A DNA stretch of 64,000 nucleotides from a virus (IMGVR_UViG_3300043444_000196:3499-67498); one strand, 5' to 3'; positions 1,000 to 18,429 are shown, counted from the stretch's first letter. The notes: generated by a model not told the origin, from the letters alone. Program-made: numbers and translations.

Positions 1000-1034
1000 G
1001 CGTGGGTATCTAAGATTAGACAAGGAGTAAACAA

Positions 1035-1274
1035 ATGAGCAAACTCGAAATGGTCAAGCTGACCTATGAAGAAAAGCAAGCCCTGCCTGTGATACGCAAG
1101 CTGTTGAAACGCAACCCCGACGCAGCCTACCTACTCATGGATGGCATGGCCAAAGAAATCGCAGTCAATGTGCTGCTGCAAGTCAAAGCCGAACTCAACG
1201 GAATGATGGCCGTGAGCCGTGCGATGAGCACAGCCGCTGGGGAACTGGCGAAGCTGGACAAAGCCGAAGTCTAA
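1035..1274 (+). CDS. Hypothetical protein
   Basis: AAGGAG RBS; its TAA stop lies inside the palindrome at 1270. Confidence 0.8.
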   Translation: MSKLEMVKLTYEEKQALPVIRKLLKRNPDAAYLLMDGMAKEIAVNVLLQVKAELNGMMAVSRAMSTAAGELAKLDKAEV

Positions 1275-1283
1275 GCTTAGACC

Positions 1284-1320
1284 GTAGCGTGTAGGGTAGC
1301 GAGTCTGCCCTATGCGGTGC
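1284..1320 (+). promoter_or_regulatory. G-U-rich RNA hairpin upstream of the AAA gene
   Basis: CGTGTAGGGTAG (1288-1299) pairs with CTGCCCTATGCG (1305-1316) using three G-U pairs. Confidence 0.5.
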
Positions 1321-1358
1321 GATGCACCAATTCAATCAATCCAAACTAAGGAAACACC

Positions 1359-2420
1359 ATGAAAGTAACTCTCGCCCAAGCCTCTACCCTGATTCGCAAC
1401 GTCGGTACATCCAATACCCTCTTGTTGCGCGGTCAACCCGGTATTGGCAAGTCATCCATCCTCGGCGATCTGCAACGTGAGCTGCCCGATTATCAAGTGT
1501 GCTACATCGACGTGGCCAACCTTGATCTGGGCGACCTCGGCATGCCTGTGATCGACAAGGAAAGCATGACGACCAGCTACGCACCCAACACTCGATTCGG
1601 TGTTGGCAAGAACTCCAACAAGCCTGTCGTGCTGATGCTCGACGAGCTGGGCAAGGCCAGCCGCCCTGTGCTGAACATGCTGCTGCCTGTGATTCTTGAG
1701 CATCGTATCGGTGACGTGCCGCTGCCTACTGGCTCGATCGTGTTCGGTACGACTAACCTCGACACCGACGGTGTGGGTGACAACATCCCAGCCCATGCGT
1801 TCAACCGTATGACTGTGGTGACCGTGGCCAACCCGACTGCTGACGAGTGGCTGCAATGGGCGAGCAACAACGACGTGGCTCCCGAGATCATGGCGTTCGC
1901 CAAGCAATTCCCCCAAGTGTTTGATTGCTACGCTGACCTCGACAAGAAAGAGAAGAACCCCTACATCTTCAACCCCATGACCGGCAACATTCGTGCGTTC
2001 TGTTCGCCGCGTTCACTGGCCAAGGCCAGCAACCTGATCGCTCAGCGTGATGTGCTCGGCGCTGCGATGCTGCCAGCTCTTGCCGGTACCGTAGGCGAAG
2101 CTGCTGCCCGTGACATGGAAGCCCTTGTCAATCTGGCTGACCAACTGCCGCTGTTCGAGAACATCGTGCAAGCCCCGGGCAAGACCAAGGTTCCTTCGAG
2201 TGTCGGCGCCCTGTTCATCCTTGCCTTCATGCTGGCAAGCCGTGTGGATGCAGACACGCTCGATGCAGTGATGGAATACGCTGAGCGTATGGGCGAGCAA
2301 TCATTCGAGGCGCACGCACTGTTCATCACATCCTTGGCAACCAACAAGTCCAAGGTAGGCATGGCCTGTCGCAATCGTAAGTTCACCAGCGCAGCCGCCA
2401 AGCTGGGCAAGTACTTCTAA
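1359..2420 (+). CDS. MoxR-like AAA+ ATPase
   Basis: Walker A GQPGIGKS, Walker B LMLDE, DLGDLGMP, TTN sensor, FNRM arginine finger, SPRS motif. Confidence 0.9.
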   Translation: MKVTLAQASTLIRNVGTSNTLLLRGQPGIGKSSILGDLQRELPDYQVCYIDVANLDLGDLGMPVIDKESMTTSYAPNTRFGVGKNSNKPVVLMLDELGKASRPVLNMLLPVILEHRIGDVPLPTGSIVFGTTNLDTDGVGDNIPAHAFNRMTVVTVANPTADEWLQWASNNDVAPEIMAFAKQFPQVFDCYADLDKKEKNPYIFNPMTGNIRAFCSPRSLAKASNLIAQRDVLGAAMLPALAGTVGEAAARDMEALVNLADQLPLFENIVQAPGKTKVPSSVGALFILAFMLASRVDADTLDAVMEYAERMGEQSFEAHALFITSLATNKSKVGMACRNRKFTSAAAKLGKYF

Positions 2421-2638
2421 TGCGCTCGGGGTACATGTACATGATGCCCCTTGATAGCGGCCTGTACGCCCTATGCCCGACGCGACTTTGGTATGCGCCG
2501 TGGCTGTGGAATGTATACGCCTATCAAATCAACGGGCTGTACGTAGACGACCGACAACCAATCGCGTCTAAGGTTAGACGCGACGAAGCCTACGGCCTCA
2601 TGAAAATACTTGGGGCTCTCAACTTGGATTGGAGATGA
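2420..2638 (+). CDS. Hypothetical protein
   Basis: TAATG coupling to the AAA gene. Confidence 0.55.
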   Translation: MRSGYMYMMPLDSGLYALCPTRLWYAPWLWNVYAYQINGLYVDDRQPIASKVRRDEAYGLMKILGALNLDWR

Positions 2639-2639
2639 A

Positions 2640-2882
2640 ATGAAAAACGTTGATATAACTGGTTTTGTCCTGTACCTTGCCATCGGCATCGCCGCCACAT
2701 ACATGATGCCCGGCGAGACCACCACGGAGCAGACGATTGCGTATGGTGTGGCGCTTGCCCTGCTGCTTATCATTGACCTTCGCTCGTACCGACAGGGACT
2801 CAAGCGAGGCAGTGAGATCGCCAACGAAGTACTGCGCGACCTGTGCGAGACAAAGAAGATCAAGGTGGTGCGCGATGTCTAA
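2640..2882 (+). CDS. Small membrane protein (2 TM)
   Basis: GGAG RBS; two hydrophobic stretches. Confidence 0.7.
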   Translation: MKNVDITGFVLYLAIGIAATYMMPGETTTEQTIAYGVALALLLIIDLRSYRQGLKRGSEIANEVLRDLCETKKIKVVRDV

Positions 2883-3042
2883 GACCTACACACTCGATGA
2901 GATCAACGGCGCACTGGAAGACCTCGCACTGATGATGGCTGACTGCGACGAAGCGCACCTGATTGTGCTCAGTTCCATGTACGCCAAGGCGTACACCATC
3001 AAGCTGCAACTGATGAAGGAGAAACCCCATGCTAGTCATTGA
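2875..3042 (+). CDS. Hypothetical protein (MSKTYTL)
   Basis: GGTGG RBS; overlaps the previous stop. Confidence 0.6.
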   Translation: MSKTYTLDEINGALEDLALMMADCDEAHLIVLSSMYAKAYTIKLQLMKEKPHASH

Positions 3043-3199
3043 ACACCAATCAAACGGCACGCGTATCGTCAAGATGCGCAAGGACTGGCACCCCGGCATG
3101 ATGAGCAAAGCATACATGCCCCGCCAGAAGAACTATGTGGAGGGCACGAACATGGAGCGCCTGCAACGTGCCCTGCTGGCAACAGGAGGTAGGAAATGA
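3029..3199 (+). CDS. Small hypothetical protein (MLVIEHQ, 56 aa; not in ORF track)
   Basis: AAGGAG RBS, open frame to TGA, ATGA overlap with the next gene. Confidence 0.65.
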   Translation: MLVIEHQSNGTRIVKMRKDWHPGMMSKAYMPRQKNYVEGTNMERLQRALLATGGRK

Positions 3200-3516
3200 G
3201 AGGGTTCGTACCGCAAATAGCTGCGTCTCTGCGTGAAGATGAAACGTGGACGTATGACGCGCACTACGCAAAGAACGAGAAGCTCGGCGTATCAGTGTGG
3301 ATAGCCAATGGGTTTTGGTTTGTCCACCTTTTATGGTGTGCGGAGTGGCGCTCGTATGGAGCGTGGGGTACCGAGGCGAAAGTCGAGCTATCGCTGCGTG
3401 AGAAGTTCACTATCTGGCGAGCATTCAAAGCCCTGCGTAGAAACAAGGTGCAACGGCGTAACGCCAAGTTGTTGGAGTCCATCATCCAACGACGACTGAA
3501 CGGAGCAACAAAATGA
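3196..3516 (+). CDS. Hypothetical protein
   Basis: GGAGG RBS; ATGA overlaps on both sides. Confidence 0.7.
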   Translation: MRGFVPQIAASLREDETWTYDAHYAKNEKLGVSVWIANGFWFVHLLWCAEWRSYGAWGTEAKVELSLREKFTIWRAFKALRRNKVQRRNAKLLESIIQRRLNGATK

Positions 3517-4085
3517 GCGCATTTGAAACGGCTCGGGACATTCGTATGCCGGGGGTTGTGCTTGACCGTGTGTACATCGACCCATCGCTACTCACGCCAC
3601 GCATGAAGAACGCGGTCAAGAAGATGTTGCGTGAAGGTTATGCAAAGGGTGGGTGGTCAAGCAAGGCTCGCCAGTTGGCGGTCAAGATTGCTGCGGCTCG
3701 TGACCTGCATGTGGTCGACTCGAACCTGTGGGGGTTTTGTGTGCCACCGTTCAACACGTACGGCCCCAAGCAAGTCAAGGAGGCCCTCGAACTGATCGAC
3801 GCTGCGCAACTCATCGAGTTGATGGAGGATGCGTCGAGGTTTACAGAGCCCTCGTACGTTACGACCCAACAAAACCGCACTCGTAGTCGGTATGACAACT
3901 ACAAGTTCATCGTTACGCACAACTGTGATCGACGCTGGATAGGGCGTTGTTCCAACAAAGAGCTCACGCAGCAAATAGCAGACGTGTTCATTTCATGCCG
4001 CACCCCTGCGCTGATCGAGAGAGCAGAGAAAGTCTGCGACATGCTCGACAACAACGAGCACATCCAAATCCGCATTTCATACTGA
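3513..4085 (+). CDS. Hypothetical protein
   Basis: 190-aa ORF with GGAG RBS. Confidence 0.75.
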   Translation: MSAFETARDIRMPGVVLDRVYIDPSLLTPRMKNAVKKMLREGYAKGGWSSKARQLAVKIAAARDLHVVDSNLWGFCVPPFNTYGPKQVKEALELIDAAQLIELMEDASRFTEPSYVTTQQNRTRSRYDNYKFIVTHNCDRRWIGRCSNKELTQQIADVFISCRTPALIERAEKVCDMLDNNEHIQIRISY

Positions 4086-4120
4086 CCATCTAATCTTAGA
4101 CAACACCGAAAGGAAACACC

Positions 4121-5299
4121 ATGCAAGTAGCTGACCGTATCAAGAAAGCGCACATCTCGATCATGCAGCACAAGAAGTTCTGTGCGTTCTCAGGCATCCT
4201 AGCCTGTGGCAAGGTCACGGTGAGTGACGTCGTGCCGACCGCTGCAACCGACGGCTGGAACGTCGTGTACAACCCCACGTTCGTCGAAGCGAACATGCCC
4301 ACTGACCCCGAGCTGCGATTCCTCGTACTGCACGAGGCAACACACAAAGCCTATCGTCACATGGTGACGTGGCGCAAGCTGCACGAGGAAAACGCCATGC
4401 TGGCCAACGTAGCAGCCGACCACTTCGTTAACCTGCACCTGCAAGATACGGACGCTGGCGAAGGCTTTATCAAGATGCCCAAGCTCGGCATCCAACCCGA
4501 CCCCAAGTACCGTGGCTGGTCGGTAGCCATGATCTACCAAGACCTCAAGAAACAACTGGAGCAACAACAGCAGCAGCCCCAAAGTGGCGACGGCGAGGGT
4601 ATGGACGAGCATGACTGGAATGGCAACGAAGCCAACGGCGACGCGGCCAAGGAACAAGCGCAAGCCGACGAAATCCAACGTGCTATCCGCCAAGGCGAGA
4701 TCATGCGCAAGAAGATGGCAGGCAAGGGCGCAGGCAATGAGGACGGTGTGTTCGGTGACCTCATGGCCCCCAAGATCGACTGGCGCAAGCTGCTGCGTGA
4801 GTTCGTGACCGAGTACTGCGCAGGCCGTGATGAGTCATCGTGGCGCAAACCCAACCGTAGGTACCTGAGCCAAGACATCTACATGCCCACTATGGTCGGC
4901 ACTACTATCACCCGCTTGGTTGTCGGTATCGACACGTCGGGTTCGGTGTTCAATTCCCCTGAGATGGATCAGTTTGCATCTGAGCTGCGCAAGATTGTGG
5001 AAGACGTGCACCCGCAGCTGATCGACGTTGTGTATTGGGACACGGAAGTGGCCGGGCACCAGACGTTCGAGGACGGCCAGTTTGCAATCCAGAACCTCAA
5101 ACCAAAAGGCGGTGGCGGCACCGACGGCAGCGTACTGTTCAAGTACCTGCGCGAGAAGAATATCAAGCCTGACGCCATCGTGCAGTTGACCGACGGTTAT
5201 GTGGGTGACTGGGGCAGCACGGACATTCCGACGCTGTGGGGTATCACAACCAACGGCATCTCGGCGCCGTTCGGTACATCAGTACACATCGAGGTGTGA
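4121..5299 (+). CDS. Zn-metallopeptidase plus vWA domain protein (DUF2201-like)
   Basis: TAATDG, HEATH (HExxH), IDW, MIDAS DTSGS, GGGGTD, LTDG. Confidence 0.9.
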   Translation: MQVADRIKKAHISIMQHKKFCAFSGILACGKVTVSDVVPTAATDGWNVVYNPTFVEANMPTDPELRFLVLHEATHKAYRHMVTWRKLHEENAMLANVAADHFVNLHLQDTDAGEGFIKMPKLGIQPDPKYRGWSVAMIYQDLKKQLEQQQQQPQSGDGEGMDEHDWNGNEANGDAAKEQAQADEIQRAIRQGEIMRKKMAGKGAGNEDGVFGDLMAPKIDWRKLLREFVTEYCAGRDESSWRKPNRRYLSQDIYMPTMVGTTITRLVVGIDTSGSVFNSPEMDQFASELRKIVEDVHPQLIDVVYWDTEVAGHQTFEDGQFAIQNLKPKGGGGTDGSVLFKYLREKNIKPDAIVQLTDGYVGDWGSTDIPTLWGITTNGISAPFGTSVHIEV

Positions 5300-5300
5300 C

Positions 5301-5600
5301 ATGAAATTTACTTGGAAGAAGTACAGCGAGCACGACGACCAGCCTGAAGATATTGATCTGTATCTAACCTTAGATGACGGACGTTGCGGGCTGGTGGCGT
5401 TTGTTCGCCCGGTTTACGCAGAGCGTTTGAACTTCGCCCCTGAATACCGCGACAAATGGCTTGCACGCAGCATGTTGGGGGACTTCGTCGACGAGAACAA
5501 ACCGCTGAAAAGTAAACGTGCAGCCATGCTCAAGTGCCGCAGGGAATTTCCCGTGCTGTGGATTGGCGCCGACCCGGAGAAACGCGATGAACTCTTCTAA
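5301..5600 (+). CDS. Hypothetical protein
   Basis: GAGGTG RBS; ATG at 5301. Confidence 0.65.
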   Translation: MKFTWKKYSEHDDQPEDIDLYLTLDDGRCGLVAFVRPVYAERLNFAPEYRDKWLARSMLGDFVDENKPLKSKRAAMLKCRREFPVLWIGADPEKRDELF

Positions 5601-5724
5601 ATACAAAGGCCCGGCCAAGCCGGTGCGTACGTGGCACAGGCCACTGATTGACTACATCGAGCCGATCGTAGTGACGCTCGCACTCGTAGTTGTTTTGCTT
5701 GATATGTTTGTCTGGAGACCGTGA
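5587..5724 (+). CDS. Small membrane protein (C-terminal TM ending WRP)
   Basis: GGAG RBS; hydrophobic C-terminus. Confidence 0.55.
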   Translation: MNSSKYKGPAKPVRTWHRPLIDYIEPIVVTLALVVVLLDMFVWRP

Positions 5725-6044
5725 TGCTGAAGAAATTGATTGACCGCCTTGTTGAGGCTTCGCTCCAACGTGCGGCACACCGCGAGAAGATTAAACGCCT
5801 CACGGAAGATGCCCCGCAGCAGCCGTTGCTGCGGAGTACAAATCTGTCGGTGGATGGCCCCCCAACGGGCCGAGTGCGCCAGTTCACTGTGCACGATGCC
5901 ATGAACGGCACGTACATCGAGTTTGCCAAGCGCAAATACAACCCGAACGGCCCCGACGAATACGCACGGGAGATTTACCTCGTGCAGCCGGGCGAAGCCT
6001 TGATTGATGCAATCAGCACTGTGCTGGTACTGATGGAGAAATGA
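5721..6044 (+). CDS. Hypothetical protein
   Basis: GGAG RBS; overlap with the previous stop. Confidence 0.7.
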   Translation: MMLKKLIDRLVEASLQRAAHREKIKRLTEDAPQQPLLRSTNLSVDGPPTGRVRQFTVHDAMNGTYIEFAKRKYNPNGPDEYAREIYLVQPGEALIDAISTVLVLMEK

Positions 6045-6045
6045 C

Positions 6046-6450
6046 ATGGGATACAGAAGCGATGTAGTAGCGCTGATCTACCCGGACATGACACACGACG
6101 GGGACGATAGCGTGGCAAAGTACGAACAACTCAAGACGCTGATGAACACGAGATTCAAGCAGTTGGTGGACGATTTTGGCTCGTGCATGGAGTGGATAGA
6201 CGTGGACCAAGTACTCAAGTTCGACATCAAGGACATCAACTGGTACTCAACCGCCTCGGGCGTCATTCGGTTTGAGGACATGCTCGCTACGCTCAACGGC
6301 GACCCTAACGACGGTGATGACGTCATAGGCGGGTATTGCACAGAGTTCGTTCGGGTTGGCGAAGAATCCACTGACGTAGTTCAAGATCACGTCGGCAATA
6401 ACGTGCAGTTCTACCTGAACGTGAGCCACAGCATAGATTGCAACGTATGA
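6046..6450 (+). CDS. Acidic hypothetical protein (MGYRSDV...FVRVGEE)
   Basis: GGAG RBS; 134-aa ORF. Confidence 0.75.
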   Translation: MGYRSDVVALIYPDMTHDGDDSVAKYEQLKTLMNTRFKQLVDDFGSCMEWIDVDQVLKFDIKDINWYSTASGVIRFEDMLATLNGDPNDGDDVIGGYCTEFVRVGEESTDVVQDHVGNNVQFYLNVSHSIDCNV

Positions 6451-6764
6451 GCCATCTAAGCTTAGACGACTTCGAGTGGGTGGAGGCAGGCTTCGACAAC
6501 TGGAGCCTTATGCACAAGACCCGCAACTTCACGATTGCACTCATCAACAACTTCAACGGGTGGCATGTGCAGGTTCTCTTTGATGCGAGCCAGAAAGCCC
6601 CCCTCCACGTCGATTCACTCGACGCAGCCAAAGCATTGGCGCAAATGACAGCAGCACCAAACATGGAGCAATATCATGAGTACATGCGTTCGCGAGCTTA
6701 CAGCCGCAGAATTAAAAAAGACGGACCGCCGTCGTTTCGATCGCGAGTATTCCAAGTGGACTGA
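6447..6764 (+). CDS. Hypothetical protein
   Basis: ATGA overlap with the previous gene. Confidence 0.6.
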   Translation: MSHLSLDDFEWVEAGFDNWSLMHKTRNFTIALINNFNGWHVQVLFDASQKAPLHVDSLDAAKALAQMTAAPNMEQYHEYMRSRAYSRRIKKDGPPSFRSRVFQVD

Positions 6765-7329
6765 GTGGCAGTGGGAAGACAGCTGGTACATCGAGGACAC
6801 CCACGAGCGGTTCAAAGAAAAGTACCGACCCAAAGGGTTCGAGATTGAGCGACTGCACTACCGTCTCGCGTACAGCCAAGGCGACTACGCATCCTTCAGT
6901 GGACGTGTATTCCTTGCTGAGTGGATGGATGCTACGCTGACCTGCAAGGACGGCCCGACTTATGCCGAGCGTTACCCAGCCCTGTACATAGCGTGCAGTG
7001 AGGACGGTAGCTACATGAACATCACGGGCGAGGACGATCGACGTGGCTGGCGTGTGGACTTCCAAGAGGGTTGGTACCACGTAGGCCCATCGGGCATCTT
7101 TGCGGGGATGGAAGATGAGGACTGGGAGGAGCTCGTTACCGAGCAGGCCCAAGAGGTAGACCTCGAAGCGGAGATCATCGCGTACTGCCAGCGTATCGGC
7201 AGGGAAATCTACGACGAGCTGCGGGATTCGTATGAACATGCAACGAGTGAAGAGTCGTTTATCGAGTCTTGTGAGGCGAATGACGTTACGTTTGAAATTG
7301 AGGAGAGCCAAGATGAAGTTTGTTGTTAA
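6676..7329 (+). CDS. Acidic SQGD-motif protein resembling a family carried by mobile elements
   Basis: YSQGDYASFSG and IYDELRDSYEHATSEE..ANDVTF motifs; very D/E-rich; family resemblance from memory. Confidence 0.65.
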   Translation: MSTCVRELTAAELKKTDRRRFDREYSKWTEWQWEDSWYIEDTHERFKEKYRPKGFEIERLHYRLAYSQGDYASFSGRVFLAEWMDATLTCKDGPTYAERYPALYIACSEDGSYMNITGEDDRRGWRVDFQEGWYHVGPSGIFAGMEDEDWEELVTEQAQEVDLEAEIIAYCQRIGREIYDELRDSYEHATSEESFIESCEANDVTFEIEESQDEVCC

Positions 7330-7570
7330 GGTCAATGACCGCAAGTGCCTGCTGTCTGCCATGCAGATCGAGCAGCTGTGTGAACTCCTGCATGGCACGG
7401 AGTACTACAACGAGAAGTACGTGGGTACCGACAAGGGCACCATAGGCTCCAGCCTGTCGTACGTACCCGTCATCGAGCAAAACAACGTGGACGAGTGGTT
7501 TGATGCCAAGGTCATGCGCAGTGACTACATCGACACCATCAAGCTCACAATGAAATTGGAAAAGACATGA
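7313..7570 (+). CDS. Hypothetical protein
   Basis: GAGGAG RBS. Confidence 0.7.
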   Translation: MKFVVKVNDRKCLLSAMQIEQLCELLHGTEYYNEKYVGTDKGTIGSSLSYVPVIEQNNVDEWFDAKVMRSDYIDTIKLTMKLEKT

Positions 7571-7917
7571 GCGGTCTAACCTTAGCTCGTCTGAAGGCGT
7601 GGCTGGCAGACGAGGGAAATTACGCACGGGAGAAGGTTGTATTCGACTCCCCACTCCCGAACTTGTACAACGATATGGGGTACACCGTCATCCGCAAGCG
7701 GTTCATCACCCGCAACGGCTACGAAATATCCATCCAACAGTCCGGCACTCATTACTGCCGCGACGAGAACGAAGTGGAACTGTGGTACTGCCCGCCCAGC
7801 CCACTGCTCTTGGCCTACGGTGGCGGGGACGATGATCCGTACGCCTACGTCCCGCTTGAAGTTGTAGCGGGCTACATCGACTCACTTGAATCTTTACCCC
7901 CAAAGGAAACACCATGA
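7567..7917 (+). CDS. Hypothetical protein
   Basis: ATGA overlaps on both sides. Confidence 0.65.
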   Translation: MSGLTLARLKAWLADEGNYAREKVVFDSPLPNLYNDMGYTVIRKRFITRNGYEISIQQSGTHYCRDENEVELWYCPPSPLLLAYGGGDDDPYAYVPLEVVAGYIDSLESLPPKETP

Positions 7918-9204: not shown

Positions 9205-9380
9205 ACTACGACAACCTCACTGACCAAGAACTACTGCGTGTGGCCGATGGCCAAGCAGGCTTAATCAAGGCTCTGGCTGAACGGCTGGAGATGCGCCGCA
9301 GGGACTTGGAAGACTTGGGTGCGTACAAGGTGCGCCCCCACACACCTCCCGAAAACCCAGACCAACTCAAACTCTTCTAA
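9201..9380 (+). CDS. Small hypothetical protein (MNYDNLTDQELLR, 59 aa)
   Basis: ATGA overlap; its TAA lies inside the palindrome at 9376. Confidence 0.65.
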   Translation: MNYDNLTDQELLRVADGQAGLIKALAERLEMRRRDLEDLGAYKVRPHTPPENPDQLKLF

Positions 9381-9389
9381 GCTTAGATC

Positions 9390-10909: not shown

Positions 10910-10910
10910 A

Positions 10911-11291: not shown

Positions 11292-11302
11292 GGAGAAAGA
11301 CA

Positions 11303-11599: not shown

Positions 11600-11601
11600 A
11601 C

Positions 11602-12357
11602 ATGAGCATTGAAGCAATGAAGCAGGCGCTGGAGGCGTTGGAACGAGCAGAGCGAGACGGGGCGTGGAGCATCGACACAACTAAAGCCATCACCGCCCTC
11701 CGCACCGCCATTGAGCAAGCAGAGAAGCAGGAGCCTGTGTCAAATGGAAAGTTAAACGTGACCTTGCAAGATACCCCAACCGAGATTGAATTGGCGCGTT
11801 ACAAGCGGATGTTTGAGGCTGCGTGTTCTGCACTTGGCGATGTTAGTGAGGCACTTGGCTGCGACCCCAATGAAGGCGGTTCAGAGCCATTGATTGCGGC
11901 AATTGAAAGACTTAACTCGAGTTCTCGCGAGCCAATTGCTTGGATGGTTTATACGCTTGATGGCAAGTCGGTATTTGTAACAGACAACCCAACAGACTTT
12001 ACTAACGAACATCGTGCATTGCCCCTCTACACCACCCCACCCGCAGCACAGCCAGCACCTGTGCAGGAGCCTGATGAATGGCTTACCGGATGCCCTGAGT
12101 GCGGAATGGACAGCGGTTGTGATTGCGACAGCGGCACATGGAACCCACCCGCAGCACCTGTGCAAGAACACGAACCAGAGAACGAGCCTTTTGTGTCTTT
12201 GGCAAGTGTGCAAAGCGCGGAGCGCGTGGAGCCGGTGGCGCAATCACTGAAAGATGCCGTGTTCACAGTTTTGGAAGGGTTCACACTTCCTCACGATGTG
12301 CGAAAGATTCTTGAAACTGCCTACTACACCACCCCGCCCGCAGGAGAAAAGAAATGA
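11602..12357 (+). CDS. Mosaic early protein with EPV/YTTPPA modules
   Basis: EAMKQALEAL start; repeated EPV, PVQE and YTTPPA. Confidence 0.7.
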   Translation: MSIEAMKQALEALERAERDGAWSIDTTKAITALRTAIEQAEKQEPVSNGKLNVTLQDTPTEIELARYKRMFEAACSALGDVSEALGCDPNEGGSEPLIAAIERLNSSSREPIAWMVYTLDGKSVFVTDNPTDFTNEHRALPLYTTPPAAQPAPVQEPDEWLTGCPECGMDSGCDCDSGTWNPPAAPVQEHEPENEPFVSLASVQSAERVEPVAQSLKDAVFTVLEGFTLPHDVRKILETAYYTTPPAGEKK

Positions 12358-12611
12358 GCAACATCATCGGACTACCGGGGGTAGTAGCCCCAACACATGG
12401 ACCCAAGGAGGTAGTCATTGACATCCTGCGCAAGATGCTGGAAGACGCAGAGAGTGGGATGCTGCAATCCTTTTACGCCGTCGGCTTTCTCGCAGATGGC
12501 ACACGCATGACCGGCATTGCGAACACACACCCGAGCGTGTATGAAGTCGTCGGAGGCATCGAGATGCTGAAGATGGAATACATCCACAACCACACAAACT
12601 TTGATTCATGA
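12354..12611 (+). CDS. Hypothetical protein
   Basis: AGGAG RBS; ATGA overlap. Confidence 0.7.
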   Translation: MSNIIGLPGVVAPTHGPKEVVIDILRKMLEDAESGMLQSFYAVGFLADGTRMTGIANTHPSVYEVVGGIEMLKMEYIHNHTNFDS

Positions 12612-13003
12612 AGAACCCAAAACGACTAGACCCAACAGGGCGGCGCAGCATCGTCACGAAAGCACCGGGGAAGGTTAACGCTATGGCGTATGCACACCTG
12701 ATGCAGTTGCTGATGCAAGGTACCCGTACCTGCGCCGAACTCGCCGCCGATACTGGTCTGCACGTCATGACCATCTACGACTACACTTACCACCTGCACA
12801 AAGCCAACGTCATCCACATCTGTATGTGGGATGGGACTGGCAGACAGCAGACACGCATCTACATGCTGGGCGACAAGGCAGACGTACCCCGTCCGTCCAA
12901 GACCCGTCAGCAGATTGCCGAAGAATACCGCGCACGTAAGTCGGCGAAACAACTTTTACAACGTATGGCTGGAGCTACACATGACCTGCAAGTGTCACCC
13001 TGA
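12608..13003 (+). CDS. Winged-helix HTH protein
   Basis: TCAELAADTGLHVMTIYDY. Confidence 0.7.
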   Translation: MKNPKRLDPTGRRSIVTKAPGKVNAMAYAHLMQLLMQGTRTCAELAADTGLHVMTIYDYTYHLHKANVIHICMWDGTGRQQTRIYMLGDKADVPRPSKTRQQIAEEYRARKSAKQLLQRMAGATHDLQVSP

Positions 13004-13268
13004 TTCACCGTTCCTTTGGGCTGAGCATCCACGCCCAAGCATCTTTGCGAGCGACCACACATTCAGGCCTAAGTCATCCGACGGCAAGACCATTGGGCAG
13101 CTCGTAACGAGCAGACTGGATGAACGCCGCGCCAAGGGCGAGCTCGTCGGTACCGTCCCCGGCATGTCCAAGAAACGCGAGGAAGAAGTGCTGGCGTATC
13201 GTCTGTTCGGCGTGTACTCCAGAGCCAAGTCGTCTACCAAACCCCAACAGAACAAGCACGAGAAATGA
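12981..13268 (+). CDS. Hypothetical protein
   Basis: GGAG RBS before MTCKCHP. Confidence 0.6.
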   Translation: MTCKCHPDSPFLWAEHPRPSIFASDHTFRPKSSDGKTIGQLVTSRLDERRAKGELVGTVPGMSKKREEEVLAYRLFGVYSRAKSSTKPQQNKHEK

Positions 13269-13582
13269 GAACAGGACTTGTGCGGGACCTGCGTGCAATA
13301 CTACGCAGCCACCCCGACGGACTAACGGTTAGGGAACTAGCCGACATGACAGGAAGAGAAAATGGCAACGTCGCAAAGTATCTTGGCTTCATGCCAGACA
13401 CCTACATCGACAGGTGGGAAGGCCCGTCGAAGAAGTACCACGGACAATACGCCGCAGTCTGGTGCATTGTCACCCCGCCAGATAACTGCCCGCATCCAAC
13501 AAAAGATGTGGTGGCCGTTCGACCGCGTAGACGGAAAGATTTTGGTGCAGATGCACCGGTCAATAGAGAAACAAACGATTAA
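13265..13582 (+). CDS. HTH protein
   Basis: LRSHPDGLTVRELADMTG. Confidence 0.7.
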   Translation: MRTGLVRDLRAILRSHPDGLTVRELADMTGRENGNVAKYLGFMPDTYIDRWEGPSKKYHGQYAAVWCIVTPPDNCPHPTKDVVAVRPRRRKDFGADAPVNRETND

Positions 13583-13603
13583 CCAAACAGAGGAAGCATT
13601 GCT

Positions 13604-13852
13604 ATGAAAGAAGGACTCAACGGAACCACTGCCGACGACCTGCAAGTTGGCGGTCAGCACTACAAAGAGATGGGCATCCAGCCTTGGGCTGTGATGGAGG
13701 CCGTGCTCACGCCCGAGGAGTGGGTAGGTTATCTCAAAGGAAACGTAATCAAGTACGGTATGCGCCAAGGCAAAAAGGACAGTGACGACGCTAACAAGGC
13801 ACGCCACTACGCACTGAAGCTGGCGGAGGTGCAACGTGGCAGCAACGCCTGA
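13604..13852 (+). CDS. DUF3310 / T7 gp1.7-like nucleotide kinase
   Basis: QVGGQHYK, GNVIKY..R, D..KARHY. Confidence 0.85.
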   Translation: MKEGLNGTTADDLQVGGQHYKEMGIQPWAVMEAVLTPEEWVGYLKGNVIKYGMRQGKKDSDDANKARHYALKLAEVQRGSNA

Positions 13853-14225
13853 AGCCAAGGTCAAAGCTAAGATCAAGCTGACCCTGCTGAACCATGGGGC
13901 GTATCATGTGCTGCCTGTATCAAACGGTATGGGCGCGCATGGCATCCCGGACTTTCTGGTGTGTCACTGCGGACGCTTCATTGGCATTGAAGCCAAGGCC
14001 GGCACCAACCGGCCCACTGACCTGCAGATTTCTAACCTTAGACGGATTGATGAGGCCGGTGGCGTGGCGCTGGTCATCAACGAAGACAACGTGCATGAAC
14101 TTGATGGGTGGTTACATGTCCTCAAAATCAACGGAGCAGTCCAATCCAATTACCGACTTTTTGAACGCACACAAGAAGCCGATGGACCCGGAAGCGGCCC
14201 GACGCTTAAAAAACGTAGAGCGTAA
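13836..14225 (+). CDS. VRR-NUC nuclease
   Basis: TPEAKVK, GIPD, FIGIEAK, PTDLQ, GGVALVIN. Confidence 0.9.
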   Translation: MAATPEAKVKAKIKLTLLNHGAYHVLPVSNGMGAHGIPDFLVCHCGRFIGIEAKAGTNRPTDLQISNLRRIDEAGGVALVINEDNVHELDGWLHVLKINGAVQSNYRLFERTQEADGPGSGPTLKKRRA

Positions 14226-14272
14226 GCGCAAAGCGTACGCCAAGAAAACAAACATCAACTGGAGAGAAACCA

Positions 14273-14722
14273 ATGAGCAACCTACGACCCGGAGTGCAGA
14301 TACTGATCGACCAGATGGCGAACAACCCGGATGATTTTTTTGGGCCTGTTGGGGAATCCAAGGGCCTCAGCATCCGCCGCAATAAGTTTGCGACATGGGC
14401 GTCCGTCATCGAAAACGAGTTGATTCCCGGTGCTCGACTTGAACGCGAGAAAGAGGGGCGCTCGTATATCTGGTTCCTGTCCGACGAAGAAAAAGCTGCG
14501 CTGGCTGAGGCGTACACCGAGGCCCGAAAGGTGCGGTTTGATGCGGAGATCGTCTTTGCGATGGCGGATAAGCCTGTGGCGGACCCGTATGCAGACATTG
14601 GCTCGGTGTATGCGACAAATTTGGGCGCCAACATAGCCGCGGTCAACGCACAGTACACCAACAACCTGATGGCGGAAAATACGATTGGCGTGGTTGCCAG
14701 CAGCTCTAGGAACTACAAATGA
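14273..14722 (+). CDS. Hypothetical protein
   Basis: GGAG RBS; 149 aa. Confidence 0.7.
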   Translation: MSNLRPGVQILIDQMANNPDDFFGPVGESKGLSIRRNKFATWASVIENELIPGARLEREKEGRSYIWFLSDEEKAALAEAYTEARKVRFDAEIVFAMADKPVADPYADIGSVYATNLGANIAAVNAQYTNNLMAENTIGVVASSSRNYK

Positions 14723-14760
14723 AAGTTGTGTATACTACGTAAAAATCTACGGAGTAATAC

Positions 14761-15372
14761 ATGCGCCGCATTGACTTGACGGGCCAAATTTTTGGCCGGT
14801 GGACTGCCCACGAGTATCTTGGGGGGAAGCCTCAAGGTAAGTGGCGTTGTGTATGCAGTTGTGGGGAAACCCGTGCAGTAACCGGGGCGAACTTACGGTC
14901 GGGGCACTCTACGTCTTGCGGGAAGTGCACCCGGTCTGAGCATGCCAGAGCTAACGCTGGGCGTCGGAACTTTCGGGGCGAGAATAACCCACGAGCCCTG
15001 CTTGCAAAACGCAAAGTGGGCGCCGCATACATACCTTCCGATGACGTTTGGTACCGGCGTGCCGCAGGGGTATTCCACTCGGCTCGGCGCAGAGGAATCC
15101 GCGTGGGGTTCTCGACCGCTATGGAGTTTGCGTCCTATGTAAAGTCGATCGCTCCCGCCAAGTGCCCTGTATTCAACCGTCGATTTGTGGACCGTGGCGT
15201 AGGGTTTTCGCCGTGGTCCCCAAGCATAGACAAAATCGACCCCGCCAAAGGGTATGTGCGCGGCAACGTGCAGGTCATCAGCATGCTGGCAAACGCCATG
15301 AAACGGAACGCAACACCCGCGCAACTTCGGCAATTCGCCGAGTGGGTGTTATCAACAGGAGATACTAAATGA
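14761..15372 (+). CDS. Free-standing HNH-type homing endonuclease
   Basis: DLTGQIFGRWT..WRCVCSCG N-domain; CPV..SPSIDKIDPAKGYVRGNVQVIS..AN nuclease motif. Confidence 0.85.
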   Translation: MRRIDLTGQIFGRWTAHEYLGGKPQGKWRCVCSCGETRAVTGANLRSGHSTSCGKCTRSEHARANAGRRNFRGENNPRALLAKRKVGAAYIPSDDVWYRRAAGVFHSARRRGIRVGFSTAMEFASYVKSIAPAKCPVFNRRFVDRGVGFSPWSPSIDKIDPAKGYVRGNVQVISMLANAMKRNATPAQLRQFAEWVLSTGDTK

Positions 15373-17261
15373 AGGTAGTTACGTTCGACCTAGAGTGCTA
15401 TTACGATAGGGAGTACTCTTTATCGCGCCTTACTACGGAGGAATTTTGCCGATCCCCGATGTTTGAAATGATCGGCTTTGCCATCAAGGTAGACGACGGC
15501 CCCACCCAGTGGGTGCCAAAGCCCGAGTGCCGGCAGTTCCTCGAAGAGTTCGATTGGTCCGACGCCATGGTGGTGTGTCAGAACACAGCCTTCGACGGCG
15601 CTATCTTGAGCTGGCGCTACGGCGTCCAGCCTGCGGTGTGGATGGACATCATGGGCATGTCCCGCGCACTGTTCCCGCATGAGAAGTCCCACAGCCTCAA
15701 GGCGCAGGCCGAACGTCTGAAGATCGGCATCAAGGGCGACGAGGTTAACAACGCAATCGGCAAGCACTACGATGACTTCACACCAGAAGAGCTGCGGCGG
15801 TACGCAGAGTACTGCGAGCTGGACGTGTTCTTGACCTACCAGTTGTTCTTGGCCTACATGGGCCGGGAGTTCCCCAAGGTTGAGATGAAGCTCATCGACC
15901 TGACGCTGCGCATGTTCATCGAACCCGTGCTGGAGCTGGACAAGCCCATGCTGGAGCTGCACTACCAAGAGGTGGTAGACGCTAAGGAAGCGTTGCTGCA
16001 CACAGTGCGCGACAAGATGCTTGAGGGGGCCAACCCTGAGGTTGTGCATGCGGTGTACACCGACGGCATGGAGGGTATCAAGAAGCTCCTGATGTCGAAT
16101 CAAAAGTTCGCCGACGTCTTGCAGTCGCTGGGTGTAGAACCCCCGACGAAGATCAGCCCCACAACCGGCAAGCTGGCCTATGCGTTCGCCAAGACCGATG
16201 AAGCCTTTAAGGCACTGGAAGAGCACCCGGATGCGCGGGTGCAGACTATGGTTAGCGCGCGCCTCGGGACAAAATCTACCATCGAAGAGACTCGTACGCA
16301 ACGCTTTATTGGTATGGCTGGCCGAGGCAAGTTTCCTGTACCTCTGCGTTACTACGGGGCCCACTCTGGTCGCTGGTCTGGGCAAGACTCTGTAAACCTG
16401 CAGAACCTGCCGTCACGCGGTGCGAACGCAGGCAAGATCAAGAAGTCCATCAAGGCCCCCAAGGGCTACGTGGTGATCGACTGTGACTCCGCGCAGATTG
16501 AGGCCCGTACGCTGGCGTGGCTGGCCGGGCAGGACGATCTGGTGCAAGCCTTCAAGGACAAGCAAGATGTTTACAAACTCATGGCGTCGAAGATTTACGG
16601 TATCCCGGTTGAGTCAGTCGACAAGACACAGCGACAGGTTGGCAAAACTGTTGTTCTTGGAGCTGGTTACGGCGTCGGCCACAAGAAACTGCAGGCCTTC
16701 CTCAAAACTCAGGCAGGGGTTGAAGTTACGCTTGAGGAAGCCAAGCGCATTATTGACACCTACCGCAGTGCCTCCTTCAAAATCGCAGACCTCTGGGCGA
16801 AAGCGGGGCGCGCGCTCGAAGCGATGCTGACGGGCCAGTCCATGGAGATCGACGCTGTGGGGCTCATCCAAGCGGTTCCCGGCACGGTGCCTATGCTGAC
16901 GCTGCCCAGTGGGCTGCACATCCAGTACCCGGACCTCAAGGTCGTTGTCAACGACGAAGGCAAACGTGAGCTGGTCTATAAGTCCAAGGGGCTGCCGGTT
17001 AGAATTTACGGCGGGAAAGCAACCGAAAATATTTGCCAAGCGGTGGCCCGTCAGATCGTGGCGGAGCAGATGCTTCGTATTGCGAAGCGCTACAAGGTGG
17101 TGCTGACGGTGCATGACGCCATTGCGGTGATCGCCCCCGAGGATGAAGCCGAGCAGGCCCAAGCCTACGTGGAAGAGTGCATGAGCTGGAACCCCAAGTG
17201 GGCCGCTGGCCTACCCCTGTCCTGCGAATCCGGTATGGGCGCAAGCTATGGAGATTGCTGA
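15369..17261 (+). CDS. DNA polymerase family A with 3'-5' exonuclease
   Basis: DLE exo I, SGRWS, NLQNLP, motif A DSAQIEAR, motif B KTVVLGAGYG, motif C VHDA. Confidence 0.95.
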   Translation: MKVVTFDLECYYDREYSLSRLTTEEFCRSPMFEMIGFAIKVDDGPTQWVPKPECRQFLEEFDWSDAMVVCQNTAFDGAILSWRYGVQPAVWMDIMGMSRALFPHEKSHSLKAQAERLKIGIKGDEVNNAIGKHYDDFTPEELRRYAEYCELDVFLTYQLFLAYMGREFPKVEMKLIDLTLRMFIEPVLELDKPMLELHYQEVVDAKEALLHTVRDKMLEGANPEVVHAVYTDGMEGIKKLLMSNQKFADVLQSLGVEPPTKISPTTGKLAYAFAKTDEAFKALEEHPDARVQTMVSARLGTKSTIEETRTQRFIGMAGRGKFPVPLRYYGAHSGRWSGQDSVNLQNLPSRGANAGKIKKSIKAPKGYVVIDCDSAQIEARTLAWLAGQDDLVQAFKDKQDVYKLMASKIYGIPVESVDKTQRQVGKTVVLGAGYGVGHKKLQAFLKTQAGVEVTLEEAKRIIDTYRSASFKIADLWAKAGRALEAMLTGQSMEIDAVGLIQAVPGTVPMLTLPSGLHIQYPDLKVVVNDEGKRELVYKSKGLPVRIYGGKATENICQAVARQIVAEQMLRIAKRYKVVLTVHDAIAVIAPEDEAEQAQAYVEECMSWNPKWAAGLPLSCESGMGASYGDC

Positions 17262-17454
17262 GGAAGCTCTGCGGGACGATCTTGGGATGACCCTCGACGA
17301 GTTCGAGGGTGCCTACGCTATGTTCCGTGTTGGCGCCGACGTTGGGGAGCTGGCAAAGACCTTCAAGTGCAACACCATGTCGCTGAGTTGGTTCTTCATT
17401 ATGCGCGGCGCCGGGGACGACGAACGCCCCCCGCACTGGCCGGGGGTGGAGTAA
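17248..17454 (+). CDS. Small hypothetical protein
   Basis: 68-aa ORF overlapping the polymerase stop. Confidence 0.5.
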   Translation: MEIAEEALRDDLGMTLDEFEGAYAMFRVGADVGELAKTFKCNTMSLSWFFIMRGAGDDERPPHWPGVE

Positions 17455-17489
17455 ACTCGGGGTTGGCAAATCAACTCACGGTTCTTTCT

Positions 17490-18155
17490 ATGGCACTCGC
17501 ACATTCCTACTCCGCAATCAAAGACTTTGAGGGCTGCCCCCGGCGCTACAACGAAGTCCGTATTCTCAAAAAATTCAAGCAAAAAGACACAGAAGCAACC
17601 CTCTATGGAACAGCAGTACACAAAGCCTTTGAGGACTTTATCCAATCCAACACCCCACTGCCAGCAAGTTTTGAGGCGTACCGCAAATTCGTGGAACCTC
17701 TTGCTGCCCTCGACGCCGACATCCGGTGCGAGGAAAAAATGGGTATCCGAGCAGACTTTACGCCGTGTGGCTTTTTTGACAAAGACGTATGGTTCCGAGG
17801 AATCCCGGACTATCTTGCCATCTCTCGTAACGGGAAAGTGGCGCGGGTAGCAGACTACAAAACCGGCAAGTCCAGCCGCTATGCAGACACCGCACAGCTC
17901 GAACTGATGGCCGCCATGGTGTTCATCCACCACCCGGAGGTTGAGAAAGTCAAGGGTGCCCTGCTGTTCGTAGTGGTTGGCGACATCATCAAGTCTGAGT
18001 ACACTCGGGATCAACTGCCCGAAATCCTGTCGAAATGGGCCGGCAGGGCCTCAGCTATCGAGAGTGCATTGGAAGTGGGCGTCTGGAATGCCCGCAGTTC
18101 TGCCCTCTGCAAGTTCTGCCCAGTCTCTTCATGTGAGCACCATCATGGCAACTAA
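17490..18155 (+). CDS. PD-(D/E)XK Cas4/RecB-like exonuclease
   Basis: SYS..CPRRY, GTAVH, GIPD, DYKTG, QL, C-terminal CKFCPVSSC. Confidence 0.9.
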   Translation: MALAHSYSAIKDFEGCPRRYNEVRILKKFKQKDTEATLYGTAVHKAFEDFIQSNTPLPASFEAYRKFVEPLAALDADIRCEEKMGIRADFTPCGFFDKDVWFRGIPDYLAISRNGKVARVADYKTGKSSRYADTAQLELMAAMVFIHHPEVEKVKGALLFVVVGDIIKSEYTRDQLPEILSKWAGRASAIESALEVGVWNARSSALCKFCPVSSCEHHHGN

Positions 18156-18429
18156 ACGCAACTACGCCGCCGAGTACGCCAAGTACCAAGGCACCCCAGA
18201 GCAAATCGCTAAACGCTCTGAGCGCAACAAGGCCCGCCGGGCCTACGAGAAAGCCAACGGCGATCTGCCGTCTACGGTAGACGTCGACCACAAGAAAGCC
18301 CTATCCAAGGGTGGCACATCCAAGGCATCTAATCTTAGAGCCGCACCGCAGTCCGAGAACACCAGCTTCGCCCGCACCAAGACCGGTGCAATGAAGTCTC
18401 AAATTTCCAAGCGCGAGCGCAAAAAGTAA
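18145..18429 (+). CDS. Small HNH endonuclease (T7 gp7.7-like)
   Basis: RNY..EY, RNKARR, DVDHKKALSKGG..SNLR. Confidence 0.8.
   Translation: MATKRNYAAEYAKYQGTPEQIAKRSERNKARRAYEKANGDLPSTVDVDHKKALSKGGTSKASNLRAAPQSENTSFARTKTGAMKSQISKRERKK

Follow-up and report, generated by a model that had tools for sequence, protein, structure and literature searches.

A palindrome array along the early arm of a freshwater podovirus-like phage: possible operator sites whose sequence changes between close relatives

Introduction

What might a 12-bp palindrome, TCTAAnnTTAGA, be doing in copy after copy along the early arm of a phage genome? The question was raised by a first-pass annotation of the window, the whole 64,000-base stretch analysed here (positions 3499-67498 in a virus record 67,498 bases long), in which the copies were taken to be sites for a dimeric protein loaded along early, possibly first-injected, DNA. 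Stoperator-like silencing, parS-like loading and a decoy for a host protein were among the functions suggested.

We propose that the copies are operator-like duplex sites for a phage-specified symmetric factor, which would exert a stoperator- or KorA-like control over transcription by the host polymerase. This proposal is made by analogy and we hold it with moderate confidence; that the sites are bound, what binds them and the direction of the effect are matters that we infer from the arrangement described below.

Results

The array is real, and it is larger than was first noted. Scanning the window returned all 12 exact copies and all three one-mismatch copies listed in the first-pass annotation (Table 1). 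Dinucleotide shuffling (100 shuffles) gives an expectation of 0.04 exact copies, with a maximum of 1, in keeping with the earlier estimate of far less than one by chance, and when up to one mismatch is allowed there are 15 matches in the window against 0.47 expected. The confinement to the early arm, first judged by eye, also holds, as there are no copies between window positions 18340 and 62315, one-mismatch copies included. Five further exact copies lie in the first 3.5 kb of the record (genome 213, 848, 1296, 1757 and 3477), giving 17 in the whole 67.5-kb genome, every one on the + strand early/replication arm; the late arm has no site, also at one mismatch, and a reversed-pattern control has no match in the whole genome. 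The first and last 130 bases of the record are the same but for one mismatch. The map is therefore circular, and the array is a single series that starts at window 62316, passes over the record join and continues unbroken as far as window 18328. Moving outward from the first early gene, one meets gaps of 237, 239, 602, 635, 448, 461, 1720, 1030, 261, 1297, 1522, 1274, 1092, 2921, 4655 and 4297 bases, a widening series that bears out the density gradient described previously, and density declines with distance in six of six complete genomes.

The idea that the array lies on first-injected DNA finds no support. The record ends are an assembly overlap within a gene, and the contigs of relatives break at differing locations. 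A terminal repeat is found in one relative only (G002; 552 bases), where it lies at the distant end at which the two arms converge; the dense end of that relative's array is thus ~31-37 kb away from either end.

Most sites lie at gene junctions, just ahead of ribosome-binding sites. Ten of the 14 arm sites are not fully within called genes, where 85.5% would be expected inside by chance (P=2.3e-6). In the six genomes a site typically lies 2-5 bases past a stop codon, or provides it, with the next ATG 3-25 bases on, and measured from the site centre the ATG mostly follows within ~10-25 bases; in the extended types of site the repeat continues into the ribosome-binding site itself. Orthologous junctions in relatives carry differing palindromes (here called words) between conserved flanks, and at the junction at 9376, just before the winged-helix gene, relatives hold the site in their own word. 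At the codons of the endonuclease VII-like gene that hold the copy at 14031, relatives of the TTTAA class have near-cognate sites of their own word, and the copy at 18328 arises by synonymous codon choice, the peptide SNLR being encoded as TCT AAT CTT AGA here and as AGC AAC CTG CGG in relatives using other words.

Promoter-like hexamers are found near control-region copies only. The sequence TTGAC[AT] starts within 20 nt downstream of 15 of 340 relatives' sites (13 of 32 loci; 1.3% in random windows). Among 714 sites from 69 loci there is no enrichment of a -10-like hexamer at any fixed distance, and the frequency of TAnnnT is 0-2% at each position from +15 to +60.

Table 1. Palindrome sites and early genes, listed outward from the first early promoter (window coordinates unless marked as genome)
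Feature	Position	Strand	Remarks
One-mismatch site TCTACGATTAGA	62316..62327	.	12 bases 5' of TTGACA (62340-62345) preceding E1
E1, first early gene, 175 aa	62418..62945	+	Hypervariable, all-alpha
One-mismatch site TCTACGCTTAGA	62967..62978	.	Between E1 stop and terminator-like hairpin
Terminator-like hairpin, then T run	62994-63015		After E1
Exact site, control region	63135..63146	.	
Exact site, control region	63372..63383	.	237 bases past preceding site
Exact site	63611..63622	.	E2 start codon 57 bases downstream
E2, second early gene, N-terminal 107 codons	63680..64000	+	135 aa overall; crosses record join to genome 217
Exact site	genome 213		Contains E2 TAA stop
Exact site	1009..1020	.	9 bases past a stop, 14 bases ahead of next ATG
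Exact site	1270..1281	.	TAA of site is stop codon of gene upstream
Exact site	2567..2578	.	3' of AAA ATPase gene
Exact site	4089..4100	.	Stop 3 bases before; ATG of DUF2201/VWA gene 20 bases after
Exact site	5363..5374	.	Within called ORF
Exact site	6455..6466	.	Stop 4 bases before
One-mismatch site TCTAACCTTAGC	7575..7586	.	Gene boundary
Exact site	9376..9387	.	TAA of site is stop of upstream gene; winged-helix gene just after
Exact site	14031..14042	.	Within endonuclease VII-like gene
Exact site	18328..18339	.	Within HNH-like gene

The array is a property of the clade. At least six copies of a locus's own palindrome are present in 69 of 90 related loci (716 sites altogether), and copies per genome number 13-19, strictly on the early arm. 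A scan of relatives, which the first-pass annotation had recommended, thus finds array and gradient kept and the word changed: the arms include TTTAA, CTTAA, TATAA and CGTAA with spacers of 0-3, and at least 10 words and four spacings share one common geometry. Words differ even between phages whose ATPases are 96% identical, and the loci L152 and L157, whose E2 proteins are 92% identical over 172 residues, carry 13 TCTAA and 13 TATAA sites, respectively. Two words occur in L131, a mosaic locus, each in its own block, and another locus (L127) has hybrid half-sites. These features point to a clade-wide, fast-evolving protein-DNA control code. Of the 29 conserved families of proteins encoded up to 10 kb from the ATPase, none has an alignment column that cleanly splits the four extended classes of site; the best column reaches an accuracy of 0.85-0.92, needing six to eight residue types.

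Does the palindrome act as DNA or as RNA? The extended logo is symmetric (C-R-TCTAA-K-M-TTAGA-Y-G), and complement symmetry extends to flanks and centre in 72 short-type and 97 extended-type sites. The arms had been described as fixed and the central two bases as varying. The centre does vary, but not freely: across five short-type genomes (72 sites), A is never seen at position 6, which is G or T, and T never at position 7, which is C or A. The one-mismatch copies (50) divide into 31 non-wobble, 12 of G.U type and seven of A.C type, and many are hybrids of two words. RNA stems in this phage would have 4-5 A/U-rich pairs, mostly at -0.8 to -1.5 kcal/mol, while some relatives have stable stems, e.g. 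GCCTAACAnTGTTAGGC at -9.3 kcal/mol. In the extended types the flanking S positions are non-complementary, and so do not form a stem; the ACT...ACT flanks are likewise non-complementary. The symmetry, the hybrid half-sites, the lack of a wobble preference and the instability of the hairpins together make it more likely that a symmetric protein reads the site in duplex DNA than that the site is a signal in RNA, as the earlier prediction of a dimeric protein site had it.

The best candidate for a reader of the sites, judged from sequence and a structure model, is E2. The protein has an N-terminal domain different from that of KorA and a C-terminal sigma-4/Mor/C/KorA-like helix-turn-helix (HTH), modelled at a pLDDT of 94-96, although all of its family and fold matches are under curated cut-offs or tied with many HTH proteins. 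The C-terminus scores 17.2 bits against Pfam Mor (PF08765; cut-off 24.9), or 16.4 bits in a six-frame search. At E 6e-4, and thus under the cut-off, it is also the only part of the genome that resembles Mor. Within the E2 family, Mor is the commonest match (12 of 22 members at E<=0.01; best E 2.3e-4, 21.6 bits), and 11 of 22 match Sigma70_r4, the scores shown all being sub-threshold, and one relative matches Pfam KORA at E 0.003. The top structural match is the Mu activator C (Z 8.0, rmsd 2.0 over 56 residues); KorA aligns with Z 7.1 and rmsd 1.9 over 53 residues at 23% identity, tied with many sigma-4-type HTHs. Co-variation with one HTH gene, which the first-pass annotation had suggested checking, is found in part. 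In the helix motif R-(V/I)-X-Q-I, six of the seven TTTAA loci have G as residue X and all five TCTAATATTAGA loci have N, but the outer bases are not tracked by E2, since the helix SEIR(V/I)HQI is common to loci with CTTAA (5), TCTAA (5), TATAA (6) and TATAT (1) arms; three other TCTAA loci have SLIR(V/I)HQI, so that X is H in 8 of 8. E2 alone does not account for a genome's outer bases, so there must be either a second determinant or some process that homogenises the sites.

E1 has no known family or informative fold match in family and structure searches (model pLDDT 93.8); it forms 101 representative clusters, and its phylogeny is discordant with that of the ATPase. The earlier statement that no integrase is present agrees with profile searches for tyrosine and serine recombinases (PF00589 and PF00239), which gave no matches in the genome with controls working.

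Discussion

On the reading preferred here, the sites adjoin the first early promoter, surround an origin-like control region and occupy most early-arm junctions, thinning outward. Host RNA polymerase would initiate at the control region, after which an early-made dimeric or tetrameric factor would fill the sites and govern transcription of the arm. Much as in stoperator systems or the KorA regulon, the bound factor would most likely occlude promoters and act as a roadblock at junctions, and early expression would be shut off or graded. The roadblock model leaves the need for promoter-distal sites and the outward fall in density unaccounted for.

One alternative is that the sites serve activation, with a Mor/C-like E2 recruiting host RNA polymerase and thereby creating middle promoters along the arm. 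Mu C and Mor are the closest structural and family matches of E2, and Mor is described as binding two 5-bp inverted repeats in a 16-bp element that replaces the -35 and is centred at -43.5 of a promoter having a -10 (PMC4390567). By eye, a control-region site in L119 and L124 lies 17-18 bases 5' of TACAAT, and the terminator after E1 implies that the rest of the arm requires its own start. Yet -10-like hexamers are missing at any fixed distance from the 714 sites of 69 loci, a start 35-45 bases downstream would fall within the gene because the ATG is so near the site centre, and symmetric sites give no direction; we think this account improbable. Very improbable, in our view, is that the palindrome works as an RNA or single-strand hairpin, whether as a processing site, a stabiliser, a translational operator, a boxB-like element or an N4-type promoter for an injected polymerase. 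A hairpin would suit intergenic sites just ahead of ribosome-binding sites, the stable stems of some relatives and arm changes between genomes, which are compensatory. The 2007-aa virion protein also has a weak match to the N-terminal part of a virion RNA polymerase family (E 6e-6, with no significant stretch), although it has no PDB sequence match; a search with PF00940 for a T7-like polymerase gave no match, its control also being silent everywhere. However, the stems of this phage are weak, mismatched copies show no wobble bias, hybrid half-sites would disrupt a stem, complement-symmetric centres and flanks would have no reason in a loop, the ACT...ACT flanks cannot pair, and one copy sits 5' of the first promoter.

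An architectural or replicative role, with loading or condensation sites round an origin like parS/KorB or origin iterons, strikes us as decidedly unlikely. In its favour, an origin-like region, in which repeated GGTTGTAACGCATGTAACGCA borders an A/T tract at 63276-63320, has the densest copies on its flanks, density falls away from this region in the six genomes, spacings of ~231-240 bases recur across several genomes, and in style the palindromes are similar to parS/OB (OB sequence: PMC2680271). Against it, and against the parS-like loading suggested earlier, the genome has no match to the ParB_N domain (PF02195; control positive in 11 of 14 genomes). Moreover, the array is one-sided, on the + arm only, although the late arm begins equally near the control region, and it is the GTTACA repeats, not the palindromes, that are conserved across every word class, a pattern in keeping with the helices of the winged-helix and Cro-like proteins, which are invariant. 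Short repeats have been proposed as the junctions for shuffling of cassettes in T4-type PeSL arrangements, and the palindromes could likewise be self-homogenising repeats or recombination linkers for early gene cassettes, with no dedicated reader. The outer bases tracked by no conserved protein, the L131 mosaic, the L127 hybrids, gene content that diverges from that of L126 exactly at site 9376, and the run of the extended repeat into the ribosome-binding site would all agree with this. We nevertheless find it quite improbable: homology-driven conversion would have very short units (12-16 bases) to work with, orthologous sites switch word between perfectly conserved coding flanks, the strict symmetry, K-M centre included, points to recognition, and no REP-associated Y1 (IS200/IS605-type) transposase was found (PF01797; 0 matches, control positive in 10 of 14 genomes). 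In the analogous repeats of Cluster O mycobacteriophages, few if any lie at indels by their authors' account (PMC4351075). Lastly, the sites may belong to a host protein, as a decoy or for a hijacked regulator, with words differing because hosts differ. Word class is indeed incongruent with phage phylogeny and with all conserved phage proteins tested, and GC content is 48% versus 57% between groups of relatives. The decoy function proposed earlier is nonetheless hard to reconcile with the data, because words differ between phages with 96% identical ATPases; at least 10 words and four spacings at one geometry are unlike a conserved host regulator, and uniformity within genomes, with its mosaic exception L131, follows phage modules. 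This explanation we rate as very unlikely.

Returning to operators read by a phage factor, a bolder version, possible but unlikely as we see it, is that these are strictly lytic freshwater phages with an immunity-like code. The operators would gate host-polymerase transcription of the early arm, and the word would be switched repeatedly, at all 13-19 sites together, between near-identical relatives, such that co-infecting kin could not cross-regulate. The determinant would be a two-part reader (e.g. hypervariable E1 plus E2) or templated homogenising, and not a conserved orthologous HTH.

If the sites are read as proposed, they form a natural series of at least 10 operator words at constant geometry, including in-situ changes of word that separate phages with 96% identity in the ATPase. 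Protein-DNA co-evolution would then be directly testable and orthogonal operator/regulator pairs would be at hand. Stoperator-like, arm-wide control would also extend beyond temperate actinobacteriophages to abundant uncultured freshwater phages.

Comparison with known systems

KorA operators sit in promoters, whereas most sites here lie at junctions without promoter elements, and the HTH of E2 is C-terminal. In geometry the two are identical: the operator OA of IncP plasmids is described as a 12-bp palindrome, GTTTAGCTAAAC (PMC2680271), with the same 5+2+5 arrangement, A/T-rich arms and a GC centre, and KorA is a dimeric HTH global repressor (PMC2680271, PMC2665229). With Mor and C of Mu, as they are described, E2 shares the character of a small early protein of ~130-140 aa with a C-terminal HTH (PMC4390567; bioRxiv 10.1101/2025.05.02.651988). 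Unlike theirs, the sites here have no -10, and the Mor scores shown (16.4-21.6 bits) are under the 24.9-bit cut-off; Mu has a handful of sites and this phage an array.

Cluster O mycobacteriophages carry more than 30 copies of 17-bp dyad repeats, TGTTCGGNNNCCGAACA, throughout the genome; in the published account their function is unknown and a dimeric protein that binds DNA is predicted (PMC4351075). As in the Cluster O account, the inverted repeats here are numerous and invariant but for a variable centre, mostly intergenic or near gene starts, with no link to promoters, denser towards one genome end, and in a phage that is not obviously temperate and has no integrase. The arrangement differs in being 5+2+5 and not 7+3+7, and in having 13-19 copies on the early arm. 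The five Cluster O genomes as described share one 17-bp motif, whereas at least 10 words occur here among close relatives; those phages are actinobacterial siphoviruses and these are freshwater and podovirus-like.

Stoperators and their reader diversify together between relatives. The stoperators of Cluster A phages (L5/Bxb1), which are temperate, are described as asymmetric, oriented and read by a monomer, the immunity repressor, which stops elongation (PMC9283540, PMC6550527). The array studied here differs in that its sites are palindromic and not oriented, occupy one arm only where stoperators span the genome, and belong to a phage without an integrase. The two share many copies of one short site placed across gene junctions, and the comparison made in the first-pass annotation still supplies the best functional analogy for the array.

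The array in its genomic setting

The genome is that of a tailed phage with two divergent arms, of which the + strand arm carries an AAA ATPase, a DUF2201/VWA protein, a DNA polymerase, a helicase and a 947-aa primase/helicase, and the - strand arm carries the large terminase, portal, SU10-type adaptors, fibre proteins and a 2007-aa LPD38 protein. Searches of the genome for an integrase, a resolvase or a ParB domain, each with working controls, were negative. The first-pass annotation had reported 12 exact copies of the palindrome TCTAANNTTAGA in the window, and a pattern search recovered all 12 in place; the complete 67,498-base record, of which the window covers bases 3499-67498, holds 17, and none of the reversed pattern. 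A shuffle comparison bears out the enrichment, as 0.04 copies are expected from 100 dinucleotide shuffles and none of these reached 12. Allowing up to one mismatch gives 15 matches against 0.47 expected, all within 1009-18339 or 62316-63622.

The sites are restricted to the + arm and the 1.7-kb control region that separates the arms. The last 130 bases of the record recur as its first 130 with one mismatch, so that the map is circular and the array a single uninterrupted run; this repeat is an assembly overlap, although the record is classed as 'linear'. The control region is origin-like, and further GTTAC(A)/TGTAAC copies lie near its GGTTGTAACGCATGTAACGCA pair. GTTACA repeats adjoin the palindromes in the control regions of relatives of every word class, 'word' being the arm sequence of the palindrome in a given genome. 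Spacings of 231-240 bases between sites, like those in the control region here, also occur in two complete relatives (G002 and G005) and in the related locus L126, and their recurrence suggests phased binding or looping around this region.

Among the remaining genes, the MoxR-like ATPase and the DUF2201/VWA protein form a conserved pair (66-93% identity across relatives) amid otherwise orphan early genes. The Nmad5 and DUF3310/nucleotide-kinase-like proteins indicate that the phage DNA may contain modified bases. The 2007-aa protein is probably an ejected polyvalent protein; its residues 150-383 weakly match a 'virion RNA polymerase' PHROG, in the N-terminal part of that family, and it has no sequence match in the PDB.

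Features of the phage genome discussed in the text (window coordinates)
Feature	Position	Strand	Remarks
MoxR-like AAA ATPase	1359-2420	+	
DUF2201 metallopeptidase/VWA protein	4121-5299	+	
Nmad5 (nucleotide-modification associated) domain protein	9553-10023		
Winged-helix protein	10034-10555		
DUF3310/nucleotide-kinase-like protein	13604-13852		
Cro/XRE-like HTH protein	21797-21973	+	small; directly upstream of primase/helicase gene; Pfam HTH_28/HTH_31
2007-aa protein	25103-31126	-	end of late arm; LPD38 domain at residues 1712-1877
E1, first early gene	62418-62945	+	
Control-region sites	63135, 63372, 63611		gaps 237 and 239 bases
Origin-like control region	63150-63350 and 63470-63590		
Run of ~25 A, then (TA)n	63276-63320		between two exact GGTTGTAACGCATGTAACGCA copies, 63162-63182 and 63322-63342
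E2, second early gene	from 63680	+	crosses record join
Record-end overlap	63871-64000		genome 1-130 (L005); mismatch at genome base 4

Words change in relatives while geometry is kept

A de novo palindrome scan of the complete relatives showed that each has its own over-represented word, built like that of this phage from two 5-base arms and a 2-base spacer (5+2+5): TCTAATATTAGA in G001 (15 copies), TTTAAnnTTAAA in G002 (13) and G005 (14), and TATAAnnTTATA in G003 and G004 (13 each). IMG/VR searches anchored on the primase and the ATPase gave 80, 42 and 48 further loci. A top palindrome was present in at least six copies in 69 of 90 ATPase-anchored loci (716 sites in total), which adds words with a 2-base gap (CTTAA, CGTAA, TTAAC, TATAT), with a 3-base gap (TCTAA, TATAA, TTTAA, TAGAT) and with gaps of 1-3 (CTAAC). 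All six genomes share one distribution: sites are densest over the 8 kb that follow the first early gene, the outermost is found at 10-23 kb, and the rest of the genome has none. The array and its density gradient, which the first-pass annotation had proposed to check in related phages, recur there, with the word changing at constant geometry. At orthologous junctions the words differ and the flanks are conserved, as at the ATPase stop, which reads tac tTC TAA or tac tTT TAA.

Some loci combine words. The related locus L131 is a mosaic (321-11756) with TCTAA-n3 sites in its first 6 kb, CGTAA-n2 further on and two paralogues of E2; L130 carries these same two paralogues, yet only CGTAA sites. 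In L127, 4 sites are pure TATAA and about 8 are hybrids of TATAA and TCTAA half-sites, in part arranged as overlapping double sites. Pelagiphage HTVC027P, the closest cultured phage by terminase (44% identity), shows no array of palindromes over its first 50 kb, and a near-identity DNA search of a phage collection with window bases 1-20000 gave just one 42-base match.

Few of the arm sites are wholly contained in genes: 4 of 14, against a chance share of 85.5% (P=2.3e-6; coding fraction of the arm 88% by our gene calls). Typically a site stands 2-5 bases past a stop codon, or itself provides the TAA stop, with the next ATG 3-25 bases on. The site in the HNH-like gene arises purely from codon choice, SNLR being encoded as TCT AAT CTT AGA in this phage and as AGC AAC CTG CGG in relatives with other words. 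In the endonuclease VII-like gene, the corresponding codons of TTTAA-class relatives contain near-cognate copies of the relatives' own word, altering the encoded residues.

What kind of signal the sites are

Sites at gene junctions could be RNA or hairpin signals, promoters, or duplex DNA read by a protein, and stable stems are indeed predicted in some relatives. However, the RNA folds of most sites of this phage reach only -0.8 to -1.5 kcal/mol. Across 72 short-type sites the logo reads C-R-TCTAA-K-M-TTAGA-Y-G, in which flanks and centre are complement-symmetric; across 97 extended-type sites it reads aAA-S-T-TnTAA-S-S-TTAnA-A-S-Ttt, where the S positions in the flanks often fail to pair (ACT...ACT) and thus make no stem. 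The 50 one-mismatch copies comprise 31 non-wobble, 12 G.U-type and 7 A.C-type cases, and many are two-word hybrids. Also, a copy, often imperfect, stands directly upstream of the TTGACA that precedes the first early gene. Taken together, the logo symmetry, the mismatch and hybrid pattern, the weak RNA folds and this upstream copy favour duplex DNA read by a symmetric protein over RNA or hairpin signals in this phage. The first-pass annotation had proposed a protein site, a view that the symmetric flanks and centre, the hybrid half-sites and the lack of wobble bias support.

As to promoters, TTGAC[AT] lies within 20 bases of 15 of 340 sites, against 1.3% of random windows (13 of 32 loci). Over 714 sites there was no -10-like hexamer at a fixed distance on the downstream side; what peaks there, counted from the site centre, is a ribosome-binding motif (+11 to +12) and ATG (+21 to +23), and the symmetry of the site gives no direction. 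The sites are not promoters in general, and a place within a promoter is possible only for some of the control-region copies. A sigma-70 promoter scan did not list the candidate TTGACA-17-TGTAAT at 62340, because its second hexamer lacks an A at position 2.

The suggestion that the array marks first-injected DNA is not supported: the contig ends are arbitrary, and the only relative with a terminal repeat has it where the arms end opposite to the array. This repeat, exact over 552 bases in G002 (L090-L093), is at the convergent end, between the primase and giant-protein sides; should it be genuine, these genomes have their physical ends far from the control region.

Candidate readers

E2, a 135-aa protein, is a plausible reader, that is, a protein binding the sites. 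One site lies 57 bases before its start codon and its stop codon falls within the next; the record-end overlap splits the gene in two. Its C-terminal part, alone in the genome, resembles Mor, at 16-17 bits and so short of the 24.9-bit cut-off. By HMM search the family turns up at the matching position in 46 of 90 loci, and members matched Mor (12/22), Sigma70_r4 (11/22) and KORA (1/22), all with weak E-values. The model of the intact L126 homologue contains a confident three-helix HTH (pLDDT 94-96), with Mu activator C as best structural match (Z 8.0, rmsd 2.0 over 56 residues), followed by KorA (Z 7.1) and sigma region 4, tied. A two-copy E2 complex prediction scored 0.40 against a mark of 0.42, which speaks neither for nor against a dimer. 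In the helix motif R-(V/I)-X-Q-I, X is G in 6 of 7 TTTAA loci, N in 5 of 5 loci with TCTAATATTAGA sites, and V, T or S in three TCTAA-KM genomes. H, however, accompanies CTTAA (5/5), extended TCTAA (8/8), TATAA (6/6) and TATAT (1/1) arms alike; the E2 proteins of L152 and L157 are 92% identical over 172 residues, yet these loci have 13 TCTAA and 13 TATAA sites respectively; and a column-by-column specificity scan of 29 conserved protein families found no column that separates the four extended classes cleanly. For these reasons we limit the proposal to E2 reading the conserved core and centre.

E1 is the sole protein whose similarity is discordant with that of the ATPase. Its clades have no one-to-one match to words, and identity is 63-65% between different-word genomes against 47-50% between some same-word genomes, so we set it aside. 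Its N-terminal half is hypervariable and its C-terminal helical hairpin conserved; the all-alpha model is very confident (pLDDT 93.8), with no informative PDB match or known fold. The protein atlas gave hypothetical viral clusters alone, and the 101 representative clusters are all unnamed. A terminator-like hairpin lies 3' of it.

Three further proteins were rejected. The winged-helix protein has a recognition helix that fails to track word classes, the overall identity of the zinc-finger protein tracks background phylogeny and not words, and the Cro-like HTH, found in 78 of 80 primase-anchored loci, has a helix that hardly changes from one word class to another. All three fit the GTTACA repeats better than the palindromes, and the Cro-like HTH likely binds a conserved site such as these.

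Proposed function and comparison with known systems

We propose that the array would regulate host-polymerase transcription of the early arm, most likely via occlusion and roadblocks, a mode of action that we infer; against its listed rivals, we hold this reading to be about evenly balanced. New here are the early-arm confinement of the array with a conserved gradient, the clade-wide exchange of words under constant geometry, some of it in situ between near-identical phages, and the lack of an obvious co-varying reader among the proteins compared. In the papers searched, the five commonest words appear only in work on unrelated subjects, judged by titles and abstracts.

The nearest published parallel is a 17-bp dyad repeat in Cluster O mycobacteriophages, with over 30 invariant copies that are for the most part intergenic and crowd towards one end; these phages are not obviously temperate, and the authors predicted a dimeric binder and gave the function of the repeat as unknown (PMC4351075). 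Mor binds a pair of inverted 5-bp repeats inside a 16-bp element that replaces a -35 (PMC4390567), and the KorA operator is a 12-bp palindrome with the 5+2+5 build found here (PMC2680271). Stoperators offer the best functional analogy, although they differ in being asymmetric and in belonging to temperate phages (PMC9283540, PMC6550527).
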